IMG/VR virus record: IMGVR_UViG_3300005337_000018
Direction: 5' to 3' (one strand)
From: an uncultured virus (IMG/VR IMGVR_UViG_3300005337_000018)
Taxonomy: Duplodnaviria; Heunggongvirae; Uroviricota; Caudoviricetes
DNA: 22,235 bases
Numbering within the stretch: the first letter of the stretch is position 1; each line of letters begins with the position of its first letter. Below are positions 6,248-18,989 of the stretch, one piece after another. The translations under genes were made by a program, and so were the position numbers. The notes beneath the pieces were generated by a model, which searched no databases, was not told the origin of the DNA, and was given only the letters and a program-made list of their open reading frames with translations.

Positions 6248-6265
6248 ATTATGACCGGCCGGTCA
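6248..6265 (-). promoter_or_regulatory. Candidate -10 (CATAAT, 6248-6253) overlapped by a perfect 14-bp palindrome TGACCGGCCGGTCA (6252-6265)
   Basis: Read directly in the spacer upstream of the 6205-terL block. Confidence 0.45.
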
Positions 6266-7843
6266 CGGTAGAGCCTTGATCACCCAGATCACGCCGATCC
6301 AGGGAGGCGTGGTGTCGGTCGCTCCGGTGTTGGCCGGGGTGGTCGAGCCGGTCACCGTCGGCCCGCCGGAATCCGTCGTGCCGTCCAGCGGGGTGCCGGA
6401 GGTCTGCGCCACCGAGGAGCCGGACCCGGCCGAGTTGACCGTGGCCGTCGGGGTCCAGGACGGGACGCCCGACTTGCGGTTGACGTAGAGGCTGGGCGTC
6501 GAGGCGGCGACCGCGACCAGCGCCCAGCCGTTGCCGGACAGCGTGTGGGAGTGCGCGGCGATGGTGTGGGTGTGCGGATCGGACGTGTGGGTGTGCGTCG
6601 CCGTGCCGCCGTTGGTGTTCGGCGTGCCCCAGCGCGGGAACCGGGGCAGACCGCCGAGCGCGAAGTTGGGCACGTTGAACGTGGTCGAGCCGTCCCCCGC
6701 GCCCCAGGTCGTCCCGATGGCCGCGAACAACTCCGGGTAAGAACCGGCCCCGGAGCGCAGGTACTCACCGCCGTCGCAGCGCAGGTAGCCCGGCGCGGTG
6801 CTGTTGCTCGGTCCACCCCACGGGCAGATGATCCCGACCGGCGTGGCGTCCCGTGCCGGGTTCAGCGCAACCCAAGGACCGAATGACGCGGATGCCAGCG
6901 ACCGGAAGTACATCGCCTGCGTGGTGATGTTCGACTGCATCCACCACTGGTTGGCCACCGTGTTCGTTGCCGACTTGACGGTCATCACGGTTGCGCTGGC
7001 GGCGATCGGCCACCCGCCGTCGGCCTGCGCCTCAGCCAGCGTCACCGAGAAGATCGACACGCCGATCGGGTAGGAGACAGAGCCTGCTGCTGATGGCACC
7101 GGAAGGATCGTGCGAGCAGCCGGGTCCGTCCACGCCGTGTTGAAATCGGTCGCGTCGACCTTGGTCAGTACCTGCGCGGCAGCACCGCCCGCCGGGACTC
7201 CGGCACCACTGCCTGCTGGCCCTTGCGCTCCGGTGTCGCCCTTATCGCCCTTGTCACCCTTCGGCCCGGTTGCTCCGGTATCACCCTTCGGACCTTGCGG
7301 GCCGGGAACGGGTCGCAGGAAGGCGACGCGAGTCTGCTGCCCGGTGGTCGGGAACCCACCGAAAAGCGTGCTGTACAGAACCACCGTCGTAGAAGCCCCG
7401 ACGGTGATCGAGGTGATCGTTCCGGCCAAGCTCTCGCCGACGGTCATCCCGTCCAGTTGGATGATGTCGCCCGCGACGACCGTCGCCAGGGTGCTCGCCC
7501 AGTTGGTGCCGCCCACGTCGAGATTGGACATCTCGACCCGACCGATGGTCGCGTAATACTCGCCCGAGCCCGGGGTCGAGCTGAGGGTCCGGTTCCAGTA
7601 TTGGATGAGAACCCGCGACCCGCCGTACAGGCCGGTGGTTCCCCTGTCGCCCTTCGGTCCGGTCGGCCCCGGCACAGTCGAATCTGCTCCGGTGTTTCCA
7701 GTCGCGCCGGTCGCGCCGGTGTCACCCTTCGGTCCTTGACTGCCGGTCGCGCCAGTCGCACCCGTGTCGCCCTTCGGGCCCTGCGGACCCTGAGATCCGG
7801 GATCACCCTTGGGACCCTTGATGTTCCCAGTCAGCGTCGCCAC
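6263..7843 (-). CDS. Tail fibre-like protein: collagen repeats plus tail-collar domain
   Basis: GXY repeats; PVGIICPWGG...GYLRCDG...YPELFAAIGTTWGAGDGSTTFNVP tail-collar motif; TH(T/S)H repeats and terminal PPWIGVIWVIKA; GTG at 7843 gives MATLTGNIKGP, paralleling the neighbour's [11 protein letters not shown]. Confidence 0.85.
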   Translation of the reverse strand: MATLTGNIKGPKGDPGSQGPQGPKGDTGATGATGSQGPKGDTGATGATGNTGADSTVPGPTGPKGDRGTTGLYGGSRVLIQYWNRTLSSTPGSGEYYATIGRVEMSNLDVGGTNWASTLATVVAGDIIQLDGMTVGESLAGTITSITVGASTTVVLYSTLFGGFPTTGQQTRVAFLRPVPGPQGPKGDTGATGPKGDKGDKGDTGAQGPAGSGAGVPAGGAAAQVLTKVDATDFNTAWTDPAARTILPVPSAAGSVSYPIGVSIFSVTLAEAQADGGWPIAASATVMTVKSATNTVANQWWMQSNITTQAMYFRSLASASFGPWVALNPARDATPVGIICPWGGPSNSTAPGYLRCDGGEYLRSGAGSYPELFAAIGTTWGAGDGSTTFNVPNFALGGLPRFPRWGTPNTNGGTATHTHTSDPHTHTIAAHSHTLSGNGWALVAVAASTPSLYVNRKSGVPSWTPTATVNSAGSGSSVAQTSGTPLDGTTDSGGPTVTGSTTPANTGATDTTPPWIGVIWVIKALP

Positions 7844-7847
7844 GGAA

Positions 7848-8444
7848 TCACGCGCCCGCAAGGACGAAGACGTCTCCGGTGGTGGTGTTCAGGTAGTGAT
7901 CCCCGGCGATCGATCCCGCGATCGGCTCGACCGGGTTGGCCGTACCGGAGTACCAGCCGGTGCCCCGTGGTCCTGTCGGACCGGTCGAACCCGGAGTACC
8001 GGGGACACCTTGGGTACCGGTGTCACCTTTCGGACCCTGTGCGCCGGTTGCGCCGTCGGCACCGGCCGGACCCGTCGCTCCGGTATCACCCTTCGGACCT
8101 TGCGGGCCGGTCGGACCGGCCGGGCCGGTGATGTTCCCGGCGTCCGTCCACGAGTCACCGTCCCAGACCCACAGGTGGCCGGTGTCCGAGGTGATGTAGC
8201 CGTCGCCCGCGTCGTCCGGACCGAGATCTCCGGGCAGGGATCCGGAGTCCGGCACCGACCCGACGATGGTGACGCCGGTGCCCGGATCACCCTTGGGACC
8301 TTCAGGACCCTCGGGACCCTGTGGACCCGTGGCACCCGGATTGCCGGGAGGACCCTGGGCACCGGGTGTGCCGGGGGTACCGGGGGTTCCAGCCGTCCCC
8401 TGTGGCCCCTGGGGACCCTTCAGATTGCCGACCAGCGTCGCCAT
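7848..8444 (-). CDS. Collagen-like fibre protein
   Basis: Two GXY runs separated by [25 protein letters not shown]-terminal [22 protein letters not shown]. Confidence 0.88.
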
Positions 8445-12462: not shown

Positions 12463-13212
12463 TCACTCCTGCACGCACACCAGAACCGGCAGATCCCGGT
12501 CCACCGGGGCGCGCTGGTGTACCTCCACCTCGGCCTGAATCCAACCCGAGGGACAAGGCAGCGCGGTCGGAGTCAGTTCGATGGTGCCGGGTGGACCGGT
12601 AGGCCCGATCTGCCCGGACGGCCCCGGCGCACCTGTCGGGCCTGGTGTTCCCGGTGGACCGGTCGGTCCGGCCGGACCTGTGGGACCTGATGGCCCGGTT
12701 GCCCCGGTCGCACCCGGCTCACCGCTGGGTCCGGGTGGGCCTGTTGCCCCGGTCGGACCGGGCGCTCCGGTGGGCCCTGCCGGGCCAGCCGGTCCCGGGG
12801 CTCCGCTCGAGCCCGGAGCGCCGTCCGCTCCCGGCACACCGTTCACCCCCGGCGGCCCCTGATCGCCCTGTGGGCCTTGCGGACCGACCGGGCCGGTGTC
12901 TCCGGGTACCCCGGGTGGCCCCGGACCCCCTGGTGCCCCGTCAGAACCATCGTTCCCGTCGGTTCCGTCCACGCCGTCCTGTCCGTCCTGACCGTCGGCA
13001 CCGGGCTCACCTTGGGGGCCAGCCGGACCCTGCGGACCGGAGGGACCCGGCTGACCCTGCTCAGTGACTACCACGGCGGCCGGTGGAACGGGGGCTGACG
13101 GGGGCGTCGTGTCAACCCCCGCCAGCGCTTGCCAGCCGAACACTCCGATGAGCACGACGGTGGTGCCCGCCGCCGCCATGCCCATCGCGTAGATCGGGCG
13201 GGTCAGATCCAT
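12463..13212 (-). CDS. Membrane-anchored collagen-like protein of the lysis cassette
   Basis: N-terminal hydrophobic helix, long GXY run, C-terminal CPSGW...LVC; starts immediately after the holin-like stop. Confidence 0.85.
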
Positions 13213-13458
13213 TCAGTCACTCGACGGGGGTTTCTTGCCGCGCCCGAGTGAATGACCGGCGATGAGTCCGAGCACCGCACCGAGCAATGTGGTCACGATC
13301 GAACTCAGGGACGAAACCGCACCGCTGGTGTCGACCTCCGGATGCACCGTCTCAATCACCACAATGCCACCGGTCATCAACAGCAGAATGACACAGACCG
13401 TTCCGGTGATCATCAGGACCATCACCTCGATGACGGGTCGCTTGGGCCCCTCCCCCAT
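13213..13458 (-). CDS. Putative holin (2 TM, basic C-terminus)
   Basis: 81 aa, two hydrophobic segments, GRGKK tail, GGAGG SD, directly after the endolysins. Confidence 0.7.
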   Translation of the reverse strand: MGEGPKRPVIEVMVLMITGTVCVILLLMTGGIVVIETVHPEVDTSGAVSSLSSIVTTLLGAVLGLIAGHSLGRGKKPPSSD

Positions 13459-13472
13459 CAGGGCCTCCCGAA

Positions 13473-14264
13473 TCAGGTCGCGTTGTCGACCCTTGTCATG
13501 CGGTACGCAGCGCGGCCGGTGTACGTGGCGCTCGCCCCCAGCGCGTCGGTGATGGAGCCTTTCACCTGCGTCTCCTTGCCCGACCCGGCGTCCGTCTTGT
13601 TGTACGAGACGATCTTGTCGGTGCGCATCCTGTCCAGCACTGCGTCCGCGATCTTCTCGGTGTCGGTCTCATCCATCTCATCGATGTCCGGCAGCACACC
13701 CGGCCGCCATTGCCCGTAGTCGTCGGCATACGCCCGGTCAAGATCGACGTTGGCCCCGACCAGTTGGACGTTGTTGCTGTACTGCCAGAGCTTCGCCCGC
13801 GGATCCCGGGTGTCGGACCAGGCGTAGGTCTGCCACGCCCAGTCGGTCACCCCGCGGTCCAGCATCTCGGTGACCACCGCCTCGCCGCCGTACATCCCGG
13901 CCACGTAGGGCGACAAGTGCGCGGCGTACTCGAGCAGAAAGTCCTCGATGGCGTTGAACTGGCTCGACTGCGCGTCGAAGTCCACCGCGAAATAGATCGG
14001 ACGTCCGGCCGGTACGCCAACCGACTTTGCCTGCTTCACCGACTCTGCGGCGCACCACTGCGCGGATGGCGTCGTCTGGCCATGCCCGGCTTCCCACACG
14101 ACCACCCACCAGAGCCCGGCTTTCGCCCCGGCGTCCGCTTCGGCTCGGGTGAGGTTCTTGACCGGTTCATCCGAAAGATACCGGCAGGCGAAATGCTTTC
14201 CCGCGGAAACCAACTTCGCGGGATCCGGCCGGTCGTAGGAGTAGTCGACGCCTTCCAGAGCCAC
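13473..14264 (-). CDS. Endolysin, GH25-like/DUF1906 (Rv2525c-like) glycoside hydrolase plus shared C-terminal domain
   Basis: GVDYS, FACRYL, KNLT, IYFAVDFD, GMYGG, WQTYAWS, VDLD motifs. Confidence 0.88.
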   Translation of the reverse strand: MALEGVDYSYDRPDPAKLVSAGKHFACRYLSDEPVKNLTRAEADAGAKAGLWWVVVWEAGHGQTTPSAQWCAAESVKQAKSVGVPAGRPIYFAVDFDAQSSQFNAIEDFLLEYAAHLSPYVAGMYGGEAVVTEMLDRGVTDWAWQTYAWSDTRDPRAKLWQYSNNVQLVGANVDLDRAYADDYGQWRPGVLPDIDEMDETDTEKIADAVLDRMRTDKIVSYNKTDAGSGKETQVKGSITDALGASATYTGRAAYRMTRVDNAT

Positions 14265-14268
14265 CGGC

Positions 14269-14478
14269 TCAGGTCTTGTTGTCGACCGACGTCGCGCGGT
14301 AGGCAGCGCGACCCGAGTAAGTCGCGGAGGTACCGAGAGCGTCGGTGATCGACCCCTTGACCTGGGTCTCCTTACCGCTGCCCGCGTCGGTCTTGTTGTA
14401 CGAAACGATGTCGTCCTCGCGCATCTTCTTGATCACCGCGGTGGCGACCTTCTCGATGTCGTCGCTGCTCAAAGCCAT
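14269..14478 (-). CDS. Predicted in-frame internal product: stand-alone endolysin C-terminal domain (69 aa)
   Basis: GGAGGAG (14487-14493) 8 nt before in-frame ATG 14478, at the GGGDDD-M linker. Confidence 0.6.
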   Translation of the reverse strand: MALSSDDIEKVATAVIKKMREDDIVSYNKTDAGSGKETQVKGSITDALGTSATYSGRAAYRATSVDNKT

Positions 14479-15111
14479 GTCGTCGTCTCCTCCGCCGTCC
14501 ATGTACCGCTGCACGTTCTTGACCAGGTCCTGACCCTGCTTGCTACCGGAGGCAACCCCGCCCTCCCACGACATGTCGATCTTCCGGTTCGACCAGGCGT
14601 AGTGGTTGATCGCCCGGTTCGCGCTGTAGCCCCACTGCATGAACTCGGCCGCGTTGATGGCGAACATGATCTGCAGCATCACGTTCGGCCACGGCGTCGA
14701 GTCACCCGGGTGCTGGCACTCGGTCCCGGAGTAGGACTGGTTGCCGGACATGTCCCCGGCCGACCCGGCGACGGCGTAGTTCGGCTGGTCCTGCTTGGTC
14801 CGGTTCAGCACCGAGGAGTTGCCGGTCCCGGCGTGATTCATCGGACCGGTGCCGATCAGGTACGCCTTCCCGTTGACGTCGGCGAACCAGTTGACGGTGG
14901 ACCCGCTGGCGAGAGTCGAGACCAGACTGTTGATGTAGCTCTGGTCCGGGTTCAGGCTGCAGACGTAGTGGTGGTTGACATGGCCGACCGGCTTGCCGTT
15001 CGACCACCCGGTGCCGTTGCTCCGGCCGTAGCAACCGGAGTATTCGGTGACGTTGAATCCCCAGTCGCGCAACCGCTTGACGATCGCCTTGAAGTCGTCG
15101 GTGATGCTCAT
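14269..15111 (-). CDS. Endolysin, N-acetylmuramoyl-L-alanine amidase (Amidase_2-like) plus shared C-terminal domain
   Basis: NHHY, NHAGTG, GTE, INHYAWSNRKID match the actinophage amidase pattern HHT..HAG..GIE..GHKEW..KxD; ATG 15111 in an ATGA overlap. Confidence 0.85.
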   Translation of the reverse strand: MSITDDFKAIVKRLRDWGFNVTEYSGCYGRSNGTGWSNGKPVGHVNHHYVCSLNPDQSYINSLVSTLASGSTVNWFADVNGKAYLIGTGPMNHAGTGNSSVLNRTKQDQPNYAVAGSAGDMSGNQSYSGTECQHPGDSTPWPNVMLQIMFAINAAEFMQWGYSANRAINHYAWSNRKIDMSWEGGVASGSKQGQDLVKNVQRYMDGGGDDDMALSSDDIEKVATAVIKKMREDDIVSYNKTDAGSGKETQVKGSITDALGTSATYSGRAAYRATSVDNKT

Positions 15112-15353
15112 CCTTCTTCGCCCTCCGCGTCTCCGCCCTCCCGGACGATCCGCCCGTCGGCCAGGCGCACGAAGCCACGCTCCACCCAAAGCTGACGGAG
15201 TAGGTGAGCGAGAATGGCCCGCCGGACCTTCGGGTCCGGATCCATCCGCTCGACCAGCAGTTGGATGTCGACGTCGATGCCGCCGTCCCCGCCGTCCCCT
15301 TCGGTGTCGCCGCGGGGTAGGAGGCGTTCGCGCTCGTCTCCGGGTTCGGTCAT
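15108..15353 (-). CDS. Small acidic protein coupled to the amidase (81 aa)
   Basis: MTEPGDERERLL...; GAGAAGGGA SD; its TGA overlaps the amidase ATG. Confidence 0.7.
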   Translation of the reverse strand: MTEPGDERERLLPRGDTEGDGGDGGIDVDIQLLVERMDPDPKVRRAILAHLLRQLWVERGFVRLADGRIVREGGDAEGEEG

Positions 15354-15403: not shown

Positions 15404-15772
15404 TTACCGCTGGTCGATCACGGCGAGCATGGCGTACTCCGGATCGAGCACCCCGCCGATCGAGTGCAGCCATTCGGCCCACCGTCGGGTGTGGCCGTCA
15501 CCCGTGGCGATGTGCGCCAGCTCGTGCAGAAGGAGCTTGGACGGCGTGGATCGGGTCGTGTCATTCGGGTCGAAGCACCATTCGCGCTCCCGCACACAGA
15601 TGACGTTGAAGGGCTCGAACCCGGCGCGCGGCAGATGGCTGTGCGCCCAGTTGGTGCCGAACGGCCAGCTCGCGGCACACCCGTTCACCATGATCATCGC
15701 AAGGTTCGGGGTGTACGGCATGACGAAGCCGGGCGGGAGGTTGGGTCCGTCGAACCGCTCGAGCTTGGCCAT
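15404..15772 (-). CDS. Zincin/SprT-like HExxH metalloprotein
   Basis: LLLHELAH...GHTRRW...IGG. Confidence 0.75.
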   Translation of the reverse strand: MAKLERFDGPNLPPGFVMPYTPNLAMIMVNGCAASWPFGTNWAHSHLPRAGFEPFNVICVREREWCFDPNDTTRSTPSKLLLHELAHIATGDGHTRRWAEWLHSIGGVLDPEYAMLAVIDQR

Positions 15773-17044: not shown

Positions 17045-17249
17045 TGTCACTCTGGATCGAGAACCCGTATGCGTCAAAGCGTTTCGGGTCTTCATCCGGT
17101 TTCAGGTCATCATCCAGCAACCAACTGACCTGCTCGAGCGTGGGAGCGGTGTAGTCCTGGCAGTTCCCGCACCACCCTTCCTTCCGGTCATTCGGGTTGT
17201 AGGACGTCCGGCCGCAGACCGGGCAGACGAACGGCGGGGAGTCAGGCAC
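17037..17249 (-). CDS. Small zinc-ribbon protein
   Basis: FVCPVCGRTSYNPND...WCGNC. Confidence 0.75.
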   Translation of the reverse strand: MPDSPPFVCPVCGRTSYNPNDRKEGWCGNCQDYTAPTLEQVSWLLDDDLKPDEDPKRFDAYGFSIQSDND

Positions 17250-18645
17250 GGGATCGTGCGATCCGTTGTTCGACCATGGGTAGGTAGGTGGCCTCGCGCT
17301 CGATCCCGATGGCCCGGAACCCTTCCAGCATCGCGGCCTCGACGGTGGTGCCGGAACCTACGAAGGGGTCCAGCACGGTGCCGTCGGGCGGGGTGACCAG
17401 CCGGACCAGCCAGCGCATCAGGGCCAGCGGCTTGACCGTTGGGTGGCCGGTTCCGTCGACCGAGGGACGTTCGGACTTGGAAGCCTTGGCCACGTAGAAG
17501 AACCGGGACGCACCACCGGTGTCGGCATGGAACGGCGCGATTCGGTCGGTGCCGTTGAAGTGCCCGGCCATGCTGCCGCGCTCGGACCGGCCGGTGAGCG
17601 TGGGACCGCTGGCCCGGCCCGCGGCCCCGGTCTTGGGGGCCTGCAGATCCAGGACTTGGGCCTGGGACTCGTCCAGGATGACGTTCGCGGGCCAGCGACC
17701 GAGTGACTCACCGGGATGATCCTCGGCGAACCGTTCCGGTGTGGTCCGTGAAACGACTCGCCCGGAAGCGTTGTGCTCGGCCGCAGCACCCGCACGCTGG
17801 CCGTCCAGGTGGTTCGTCGCTCCCTTGCGCCGTGCGATGGACGGGTTGACCTCGTCCTCGGCCCCGGCGATCCGGGTGCCGTCGATGTTCAGGGCCCCGG
17901 TGCCGTGGGTCAGGACATTGACGGCCACGGTGCCGATGAGGGGTTTGCGGGCCACGATGATCGGCTCGAACGCGGGCTTGAGCGCGGTGCCCCAGCCGGA
18001 CCACCGAGTGGCGTCCGCGGTGGCCGGTGCTGTTGTGGTCGGCACGAACTCCCGGCCGTTGTCCTTGATCCAGCTTCCGGTCGCGTTCTGGTCCGCACCG
18101 GGAATCATCCGTTTCACCGGTCGGCCCGTCGAGAGCACCTCGCGCTCGGCACCGGCCATCTTGTCCATGTCCTTGGAGATGTCCCGGGACTTGGGGAAAC
18201 CGGATCCGTACAGCCAGGCGATGGAGTCCCGGATCTCGAACCCGGCGTCCTCGATCGCCGCGGCGAGCCGGTGCCAGGTGCGGGTGCCACCGAATGACAG
18301 CAGGTGCCCGCCGGGCTTGAGCACCCGCAGGCACTCGGCCGCCCACGCGGTCGACCACTGCTGGAACTTGTGGGAGTCGTGGTCGTGATACCCGCGGTCG
18401 TGGGTGCCGCCGTAGGCGTAGATCCCGCGCTGCTCCTTGCCGGTGGCCATCTGGCCCTTCATGGCGGCCGGGGAGTCCCATTCCTTGCCCATGAAGCCCA
18501 GCCCGTAGGGCGGGTCGGTGACCACGGCGTCGACCGAGTCCGGTGGCAAGGTCGCCATGACCCGTAGGCAATCCCCGTGGTGCAACCGGATCCCGCGGAC
18601 GGGATCGAAGTAGCGGGCGGCGGAGATCGCCATCATGGACGTCAC
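17242..18645 (-). CDS. Orphan N4-C/N6-A DNA methyltransferase (beta class)
   Basis: HHGDCL, TDPPY (motif IV) preceding HPTVKP and VLDPFVGSGTT (motif I); start GTG 18645 (GTGA overlap) or ATG 18636. Confidence 0.93.
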   Translation of the reverse strand: MTSMMAISAARYFDPVRGIRLHHGDCLRVMATLPPDSVDAVVTDPPYGLGFMGKEWDSPAAMKGQMATGKEQRGIYAYGGTHDRGYHDHDSHKFQQWSTAWAAECLRVLKPGGHLLSFGGTRTWHRLAAAIEDAGFEIRDSIAWLYGSGFPKSRDISKDMDKMAGAEREVLSTGRPVKRMIPGADQNATGSWIKDNGREFVPTTTAPATADATRWSGWGTALKPAFEPIIVARKPLIGTVAVNVLTHGTGALNIDGTRIAGAEDEVNPSIARRKGATNHLDGQRAGAAAEHNASGRVVSRTTPERFAEDHPGESLGRWPANVILDESQAQVLDLQAPKTGAAGRASGPTLTGRSERGSMAGHFNGTDRIAPFHADTGGASRFFYVAKASKSERPSVDGTGHPTVKPLALMRWLVRLVTPPDGTVLDPFVGSGTTVEAAMLEGFRAIGIEREATYLPMVEQRIARSRA

Positions 18646-18989
18646 TGCTGGGGCCTCCGGATGAACTGCCAGGTCCCGGCCAGCGGATGGTTCGGCGGGG
18701 CGATACGAGCAAACCATGTCCCGGCGTCGCCGGGCTCGGGCTCGGGGAACCGGCTCCGGATGGCCTGGTGCACCGAACAGGCACGCAGGTTGGATTCCGG
18801 GTTCAGTCGCTCGAGCAGCGGGTGCTCCACGATGAACTCGATCTTGCTGGGCTCGAAGACGTCGGCACTGTCGGTGTGGAGCAACTCGATGGTGTGGTGA
18901 GTGGTGGTGAGTTGGGTATCCAGCATGGCCCGTTGGACGGGTGTGAGCAGGTCGACGGGGGACGGGTCCGGGTGGTCAGACGACACCAT
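18642..18989 (-). CDS. Hypothetical protein (115 aa)
   Basis: GGAGG SD; tight overlaps with both neighbours. Confidence 0.7.
   Translation of the reverse strand: MVSSDHPDPSPVDLLTPVQRAMLDTQLTTTHHTIELLHTDSADVFEPSKIEFIVEHPLLERLNPESNLRACSVHQAIRSRFPEPEPGDAGTWFARIAPPNHPLAGTWQFIRRPQQ

Follow-up and report, generated by a model that had tools for sequence, protein, structure and literature searches.

Two adjacent endolysins of an uncultured phage end in the same, previously unclassified C-terminal module

Introduction

Why should two wall-degrading enzymes of one phage, with different catalytic domains, end in the same C-terminal segment? The question is raised by positions 13,473–15,111 of a stretch of 22,235 nucleotides (nt) of virus record IMG/VR IMGVR_UViG_3300005337_000018 (the whole stretch is called the window below), where the genes of two endolysins, P0001 and P0002, lie side by side on the minus strand. 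From the letters alone it had been proposed (the original prediction) that both proteins carry a shared C-terminal domain which, together with free copies of it, could bring an amide-cleaving and a glycan-cleaving head into one complex. What the two proteins share proves to be a genuine, discrete C-terminal domain of endolysins that had not been classified before (the module); its family, its distribution and the readings that may account for its presence on both enzymes are described here.

The two copies of the module

The lysins and their modules were placed as follows (aa, amino acids).

14269–15111, minus strand: P0001, endolysin 1, 280 aa; likely divergent Amidase_2-type domain, Gly/Asp linker and module
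14272–14472, minus strand: module copy A (P0001 residues 214–280; BLASTP)
13473–14264, minus strand: P0002, endolysin 2, 263 aa, GTG start; Rv2525c/DUF1906-type domain and module
13476–13676, minus strand: module copy B (P0002 residues 197–263; BLASTP)

P0001 and P0002 were compared by BLASTP and align only over their C-terminal 67 residues, 50 of which are identical (75%, gapless, E 2e-29); all other local alignments between the two proteins had E ≥ 5.6. Over the last 46 residues identity is 41/46, and the block IVSYNKTDAGSGKETQVKGSITDALG, which forms the hairpin block of the module, is identical in both copies (26/26), so that the prediction of one domain at the end of both lysins is confirmed. 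The net charge of the module is about zero (0 and −1 for the two copies). A search of all six frames of the window with a hidden Markov model (HMM) of the module returned exactly two copies, both fused to the lysin genes, and no stand-alone module gene.

Copies A and B are identical at 143 of 201 nt of DNA (71%), and of the 19.2 synonymous sites in the 26-residue identical block 13.5 differ (proportion of synonymous differences, pS, 0.70), which is near saturation. Over 71 aligned columns copy A shares more residues with modules carried by M15 enzymes in other phages (61/71 and 57/71) than with copy B (51/71). Because the DNA has diverged to this extent, synonymous sites are close to saturation and copy A lies nearer to copies of other phages, both copies are old, and their likeness is kept by selection and not by recent duplication or gene conversion. 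In the hairpin block, however, each twin is matched best by the other, with 26/26 against at most 23/26 for the next-best copies among the matches listed.

Catalytic domains of the two lysins

The catalytic domain of P0002 (about residues 1–190) matched PF08924 (Rv2525c_GlyHyd-like, formerly DUF1906) with 77.4 bits against a cut-off of 27.2 (E 2.1e-21; model positions 3–195 of 198), and the label of DUF1906 hydrolase that it had originally been given is correct. The protein also matched PHROG 13480 ('endolysin') at 2.8e-31, and tblastn matches were obtained in 76 phage records, including 67 of Gordonia and 6 of Rhodococcus phages, annotated as lysin A or endolysin in the 15 matches listed. A match to Archimedes spanning 95–97% of the query was set aside as a run-on of the alignment into the middle of a 587-aa lysin.

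For P0001 (catalytic domain about residues 1–205) the score against Pfam Amidase_2 (PF01510) was 14.2 bits (E 0.058), under the gathering cut-off of 26 bits, and its closest homologue, P0034, likewise had no Pfam match at E ≤ 0.01. P0001 matched PHROG 880 ('endolysin') at 6.5e-18, and its residues 10 to ~190 align (pairwise E 1e-10) with the endolysin of Streptomyces phage Kenrey, which is composed of Amidase_2 (1.8e-19, residues 39–181) and LysM. Similarity to the TM4 protein annotated 'lysin A, N-acetylmuramoyl-L-alanine amidase domain' was 27% (E 1e-4), and tblastn matches were found in 118 phage records (110 Streptomyces, 7 Mycobacterium, 1 Mycolicibacterium). Because of the PHROG 880 match and the alignment to the Amidase_2 endolysin of Kenrey, P0001 is likely to be a divergent amidase; the original label is thus retained by way of these homologies, while the direct Pfam score falls short. 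The zinc ligands of Amidase_2 are His, His and Asp/Cys. In the pairwise alignment with Kenrey the HH of 'NHHY' stands opposite the HH of 'VHHT', and the His of 'NHYAW' opposite the His of 'GHGEW', with an Asp 9 residues further on; these residues are the putative ligands. Discarded were a tblastn match to Kenrey spanning 95–97% of the query (alignment run-on into the LysM domain) and an AlphaFold model of the full-length amidase from a mixed alignment (predicted local distance difference test, pLDDT, 36; unusable).

Distribution and family of the module

A word-based search with the module returned 8 proteins, a HMMER pass over 1.84 billion representatives with a profile of the two window copies returned 10 at E ≤ 0.001, and with a 15-sequence profile against longer proteins 21 family members were collected. 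All 21 are metagenomic proteins of 205–291 aa in which the module (~65 residues) is C-terminal (21/21), behind a single wall-hydrolase domain; an acidic/Gly linker joins catalytic domain and module in family members. The head is an M15_4 peptidase (PF13539) in 11 of the 21 (precomputed Pfam annotation), Amidase_2 in P0011 and P0035, the P0001-type amidase in P0001 and P0034, and the PF08924 glycosidase in one member only. The module is shuffled onto at least four kinds of lysin catalytic domain, and it is under stronger constraint than the enzyme domains: among six M15 members the mean identity was 74% for the module against 54% for the catalytic domain, the module being the higher in 15 of 15 pairs. 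The signature of 25 unique copies reads D-[IV]-x3-A-D-x-V in helix 1, D-x3-G-x-E-[ST] in the hairpin and A-L...R-A-A-Y-R in helix 2.

None of 50,697 deposited phage records contained the module, and two divergent members used as queries had no match there even at E ≤ 1; nor was it found in the IMG/VR scans for relatives. A scan of Joint Genome Institute (JGI) metagenomes gave a sole find, a piece of this same phage, 4.9 kb long and with its genes in the same order (L001), and the nearest virus record is a 6.6-kb fragment without the module (G001). Most family members are known from contigs of 1–3 kb alone.

Candidates for a free-standing module came up as four short look-alikes, P0012 (67 aa), P0013 (65 aa), P0015 (90 aa) and P0017 (78 aa), each on one contig of 623–5515 nt. 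P0013 is letter for letter the C-terminus of the 230-aa P0028, and P0015 and P0017 start inside the conserved end of the amidase domain. Given the short contigs, the identity of P0013 with part of P0028 and the starts of P0015 and P0017, they were read as truncated gene calls, and a search limited to short proteins gave no free-standing module.

Two further proteins were dropped from the family as spurious, namely P0014 (a 1095-aa repeat protein) and P0018 (369 aa, metagenomic, with FG-GAP-like repeats and 'FNKRDAGSGKT' repeats). The six-fold 'F-N-[KR]-x-D-x-G-S-G-K-T' hairpins of P0018 resemble the invariant YNKTDAGSGKET of the module locally (E 8.7e-4, four short stretches); this likeness was judged to be convergent or local only, and supports no more than the reading of the motif as a hairpin.

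Family and fold searches

No Pfam family matched more than one of 15 module members, and LysM, PG_binding_1, the SH3 types, LGFP, CW_7, CW_binding and SPOR gave no profile match to the module in Pfam. An NCBIfam match to TsaE (E 0.039, 13.8 bits against 60.1) was rejected as due to the P-loop-like string 'GSGKET'. Whole lysins searched by phmmer against the PDB gave nothing significant, and the ESM Atlas gave no usable match. The original description of the domain as unlike LysM, PG_binding_1, SH3b and LGFP holds for Pfam, NCBIfam, PHROG and the PDB, and the Foldseek and profile searches that had been proposed with it returned no significant relative in the PDB, BFVD or Pfam and no known binding family (values are given with the readings below).

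A model of residues 210–280 of P0001 was calculated with AlphaFold2 from a 15-row alignment (pLDDT 82; predicted template modelling score, pTM, 0.51). It consists of a helix (7–23), two strands (26–32 and 39–45) and a second helix (46–70). The insignificant top rows of the fold searches (HU, DnaD-N, PadR/LmrR) are all helix-wing-helix pieces of obligate dimers, which may be taken as a hint and no more.

Wall targeting, assembly or docking

On balance, and with modest confidence, the locus is read as a split lysin: its two enzymes would work independently of each other, and the mobile module, present once on each of them, would direct both to the wall. The module itself exists, moves among lysin catalytic domains, is under strong purifying selection and matches no known family. 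That it binds the cell wall is suggested by analogy, because its position and architecture (catalytic domain, linker, C-terminal module) are those of lysin binding domains, and the enzymes would work side by side and not as one particle. A peptidoglycan hydrolase would then be divided over two adjacent, probably co-translated genes, one for an amide-cleaving and one for a glycan-cleaving enzyme; a holin with two transmembrane segments would open the membrane and release both lysins, and the module would hold both heads on the same wall ligand, where two different bonds would be cut at the same sites. The shuffling of the module among heads, its occurrence on lysin catalytic domains exclusively, a constraint above that on the enzymes and the age of the two copies also count in favour of this reading. 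Identity of the twins in the hairpin block would be expected if both copies must fit one host-specific target, and the lysis context fits, because both enzymes are without hydrophobic segments and are followed by a holin-like gene with two transmembrane segments.

If this is correct, the locus offers a design alternative to the large multi-domain lysin A, with the activities split and the targeting domain copied onto each half. Lysin C-terminal domains decide which bacteria are targeted and are the most reused parts in engineered lysins and diagnostic probes. The module is compact (~65 aa), strongly conserved and without relatives in curated libraries; all phages known to carry it are uncultured, and in nature it already works with four different catalytic heads. 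Should it bind a component of the actinobacterial wall, it would provide a new tool for targeting and point to a phage–host group that has not yet been sampled.

Several results weigh against wall binding and against two independent enzymes. No Pfam family matched the module at E ≤ 1 save noise (best 0.011, in 1 of 15 members), no NCBIfam or PHROG model covers it, and the best E value of a sequence profile search of the PDB was 0.44. Foldseek against the PDB and BFVD returned 0 matches at E ≤ 0.001, and VIA-align against 48,161 chains reached a best Z of 3.9, on long helices only; such an absent fold match leaves a relationship to solved binding domains possible. The module was not found in one genome each of ~185,000 prokaryote species (GTDB), and many lysin binding domains also occur in host autolysins. 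Its neutral charge gives no obvious affinity for anionic wall polymers, and a 65-residue unit of two helices and a hairpin, as modelled, may need a partner for stability. To these points is added a signal within the amidase gene, where GGAGG stands 10 nt ahead of an in-frame ATG (Met212), exactly at the boundary of the amidase domain; this hints at a more complex, multimeric arrangement.

14476–14493, minus strand: candidate internal start in P0001 (GGAGG 14489–14493, ATG of Met212 14476–14478)

The linker at this site, Gly-Gly-Gly-Asp-Asp-Asp-Met, is coded GGC GGA GGA GAC GAC GAC ATG. Core and spacing of the signal equal those of the amidase gene's own start, and a GGAGG 4–12 nt upstream was found at only 3 of 234 internal in-frame ATG or GTG codons in 24 open reading frames (ORFs) of the window; of the other two such codons one is probably the true start of a methyltransferase gene. 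A free product of 69 residues from the amidase gene is accordingly a candidate and a genuine lead. The chance of a GGAGG core, given the linker peptide, is by our own estimate roughly one in four: GGA makes up 14% of the Gly codons here, and the core arises by chance fairly readily because it suffices that either of the first two Gly codons is GGA. Elsewhere in the module, at 13560–13577 (minus strand), the invariant GKETQV of copy B is coded with an AGGAG 6 nt ahead of an in-frame GTG (Val234), where the amidase copy has GTC; this is probably a by-product of conserved codons, Shine–Dalgarno-like cores arising easily here.

The internal start is a sequence-level lead for a second reading, in which amidase, glycosidase and the free 69-residue domain form one mixed multimeric lysin through the module, much as in lysins whose single gene yields two polypeptides (CTP1L, CD27L, Lys170, LysP7951), except that here the catalytic heads would be of two kinds. 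We regard this as unlikely. It would account for the start-like signal and its rarity in the window, and it agrees with the Met or Val that stands 5–7 residues ahead of helix 1, after an acidic run, in 24 of 25 unique copies (in P0034 a Met is 8 residues ahead). The apparent translational coupling of the two lysin genes and the 26/26 identity of the hairpin block are in keeping with it, as is the modelled helix-hairpin-helix with Ala and Gly along helix 2, a kind of unit that would often be an obligate dimer. Internal starts are moreover predicted in about half of the endolysins of Gram-positive and mycobacterial phages, some of whose products multimerise, according to PMC9430671; the same paper reports that the two polypeptides do not always interact. 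Against assembly stand the lack of a Shine–Dalgarno-like core before the boundary Met197 of the glycosidase gene, the ease with which the GGAGG can arise, and the lack in the window of a separate gene for the domain; the boundary Met or Val, moreover, fits a conserved start codon and a simple hydrophobic helix cap equally well. Of the free domain subunits that were originally proposed, one lead thus survives, the GGAGG and ATG of the amidase gene alone, whereas separate genes for them dissolved into look-alikes on short contigs and the C-terminus of P0028. The full mixed complex, in which amidase, glycosidase and a free 69-residue copy are all co-assembled by the module, is given a distinctly lower probability still. 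No such hetero-enzymatic particle is known among multimeric endolysins, and if the module does join two enzymes and a free subunit, multimeric endolysins would be extended to a complex with two catalytic heads.

A third reading, in which the module docks to a phage or host protein (the holin, the collagen-like membrane protein, or an export or chaperone factor) and so times or routes the release of both enzymes, seems to us improbable. It would explain why conservation is very high, above that of the catalytic domains, and why several polar positions never vary (the D, G and E of the hairpin, and the RAAYR motif of helix 2); the absence of the module from bacterial genomes, its neutral net charge, and the small uncharacterised genes and the membrane-anchored collagen-like protein that flank the lysins point the same way. 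No candidate partner demonstrably co-occurs with the module, however, most members being on contigs of 1–3 kb, and a catalytic domain joined by a linker to a C-terminal module is the layout classically associated with wall binding. That the likeness has no separate function at all, being the outcome of recent duplication, a gene-conversion tract or compositional chance, can be practically dismissed: the copies are adjacent in one cassette, which favours recombination, but this origin is refuted by the E value of 2e-29, the DNA identity of 71%, the near-saturation of synonymous sites, the greater nearness of copy A to other phages and the occurrence of the module in ~21 protein clusters.

Comparison with known lysin systems

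The split lysin has its nearest counterparts in Gordonia and other actinobacterial phages; for Gordonia phages PMC9671378 describes split lysin A genes, each of less than 300 aa and with one catalytic domain, which agrees with the favoured reading. In Gordonia phage Button, genes 21 and 22 are annotated 'lysin A, L-Ala-D-Glu peptidase domain' and 'lysin A, glycosyl hydrolase domain', and the locus resembles Button genes 21–23 in that two adjacent one-domain lysin genes of less than ~320 aa are followed by a holin; here, too, two adjacent single-hydrolase genes lie next to a holin-like gene, and the catalytic domains are distant homologues of actinophage lysin A domains. The Button halves, the sole example compared, are without a common C-terminal segment (best 16 residues, E 0.036), whereas here both halves end in the same 67-residue module.

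Two polypeptides are made by an internal start in the endolysins CTP1L, CD27L, Lys170, LysIME-EF1, phi2638A, LysP7951 and Ms6 LysA. This arrangement is reported to be frequent, and multimers are sometimes formed through the C-terminal domain (PMC9430671, PMC4777826). The amidase resembles these proteins in having a Shine–Dalgarno-like core and an in-frame ATG in the linker before its C-terminal module; in contrast to them, no significant similarity of the module to their binding domains was found in sequence or fold, the second gene is without the signal, and none of the cases described there combines two different catalytic subunits. The amidase would belong to this group only if production of the short polypeptide can be shown.

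In PlyC of streptococcal phage C1 a catalytic subunit is combined with eight copies of a binding subunit that has a gene of its own. Common to both systems is the idea that a lysin can be put together from the products of separate genes; the window differs in having no separate module gene, the short look-alikes appear to be truncated calls, and there is no significant fold match. Mycobacteriophage LysA proteins are reportedly modular, with shuffled catalytic and C-terminal wall-binding domains (an observation said to go back to Payne and Hatfull in 2012). The module is like them in that one C-terminal unit is mosaically recombined with different catalytic domains, and unlike them in that their PG_binding_1-like and LGFP C-terminal types do not match it (Pfam) and in that the activities are here on separate polypeptides, each with its own copy. 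The modular organisation of mycobacteriophage LysA is summarised in PMC9671378.

In a limited literature search no report was met of a phage in which two lysins have a new C-terminal domain in common. New, as a real and clean observation, are a rare family of lysin C-terminal domains and its unusual twin arrangement within a split lysin.

Gene order and neighbouring genes

The source is an uncultured actinobacteriophage: the portal protein of the window is 41–43% identical to portals of Actinomycetia phage DSL-LC01 and of Microbacterium and Gordonia phages, and G+C is 63–70%. Lysin-bearing contigs reach 86.5 kb. Besides the lysins and the portal, the window carries a large terminase, a MuF-like head protein, collagen-like tail fibres and a DNA methyltransferase. 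On the minus strand the order is an 81-codon acidic ORF, P0001, P0002, an 81-aa holin-like protein and a collagen-repeat protein.

15108–15353, minus strand: acidic ORF, 81 aa, uncertain coding status; its stop overlaps the amidase start (ATGA)
14264–14271, minus strand: amidase/glycosidase junction (TGA 14269–14271, 4 nt, GTG 14262–14264)
13213–13458, minus strand: holin-like protein, 81 aa, directly downstream of both lysins
12463–13212, minus strand: collagen-repeat protein, 249 aa, membrane-anchored, directly after the holin-like gene

The GTG start of the glycosidase has no Shine–Dalgarno core and follows the TGA of the amidase after a gap of 4 nt, and because of this junction and the missing core the two genes are suggested to be translationally coupled. 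The holin-like protein has hydrophobic segments at 7–40 and 47–72 (Kyte–Doolittle) and a charged C-terminus, and its gene has GGGAGG 5 nt ahead of the ATG; no family match was found in Pfam or PHROG. Hydrophobic segments were absent from both lysins in the Kyte–Doolittle scan, and for this reason the cassette looks like one of canonical holin-dependent lysis.

The acidic ORF had no family match, and its G+C at third codon positions (GC3, 0.78) was not the top of the three frames; its coding status is uncertain. Its placement resembles that of the small chaperone-like gene that precedes lysA in mycobacteriophage Ms6. A 122-aa ORF a short way upstream of the cassette (15404–15772, minus strand, GC3 0.89) contains a HELAH motif of the HExxH type; it had no Pfam match at E ≤ 0.01 and no PHROG match at E ≤ 0.001, and may encode a small metallopeptidase.

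The 249-aa collagen-repeat protein has an N-terminal hydrophobic segment (6–27), an unbroken run of 53 Gly-X-Y triplets and a short C-terminal end that contains Cys. It matched Pfam Collagen at 6.7e-26, and its PHROG matches are collagen regions of tail fibres. A membrane-anchored collagen rod is unusual in a lysis cassette; the protein is a candidate wall-spanning lysis factor or the product of a misplaced fibre gene. Two further, adjoining collagen-repeat proteins of tail-fibre type (532 and 198 aa) are encoded at 6263–8444 (minus strand), where they separate the lysis cassette from the genes of terminase and portal, and the lysis cassette therefore lies upstream of the packaging genes. The methyltransferase ORF at 17242–18717 (minus strand; 491 aa, PHROG 67, 1.5e-82) contains an in-frame GTG at codon 25 that is preceded by GGAGG, and the true start of the gene is probably there.

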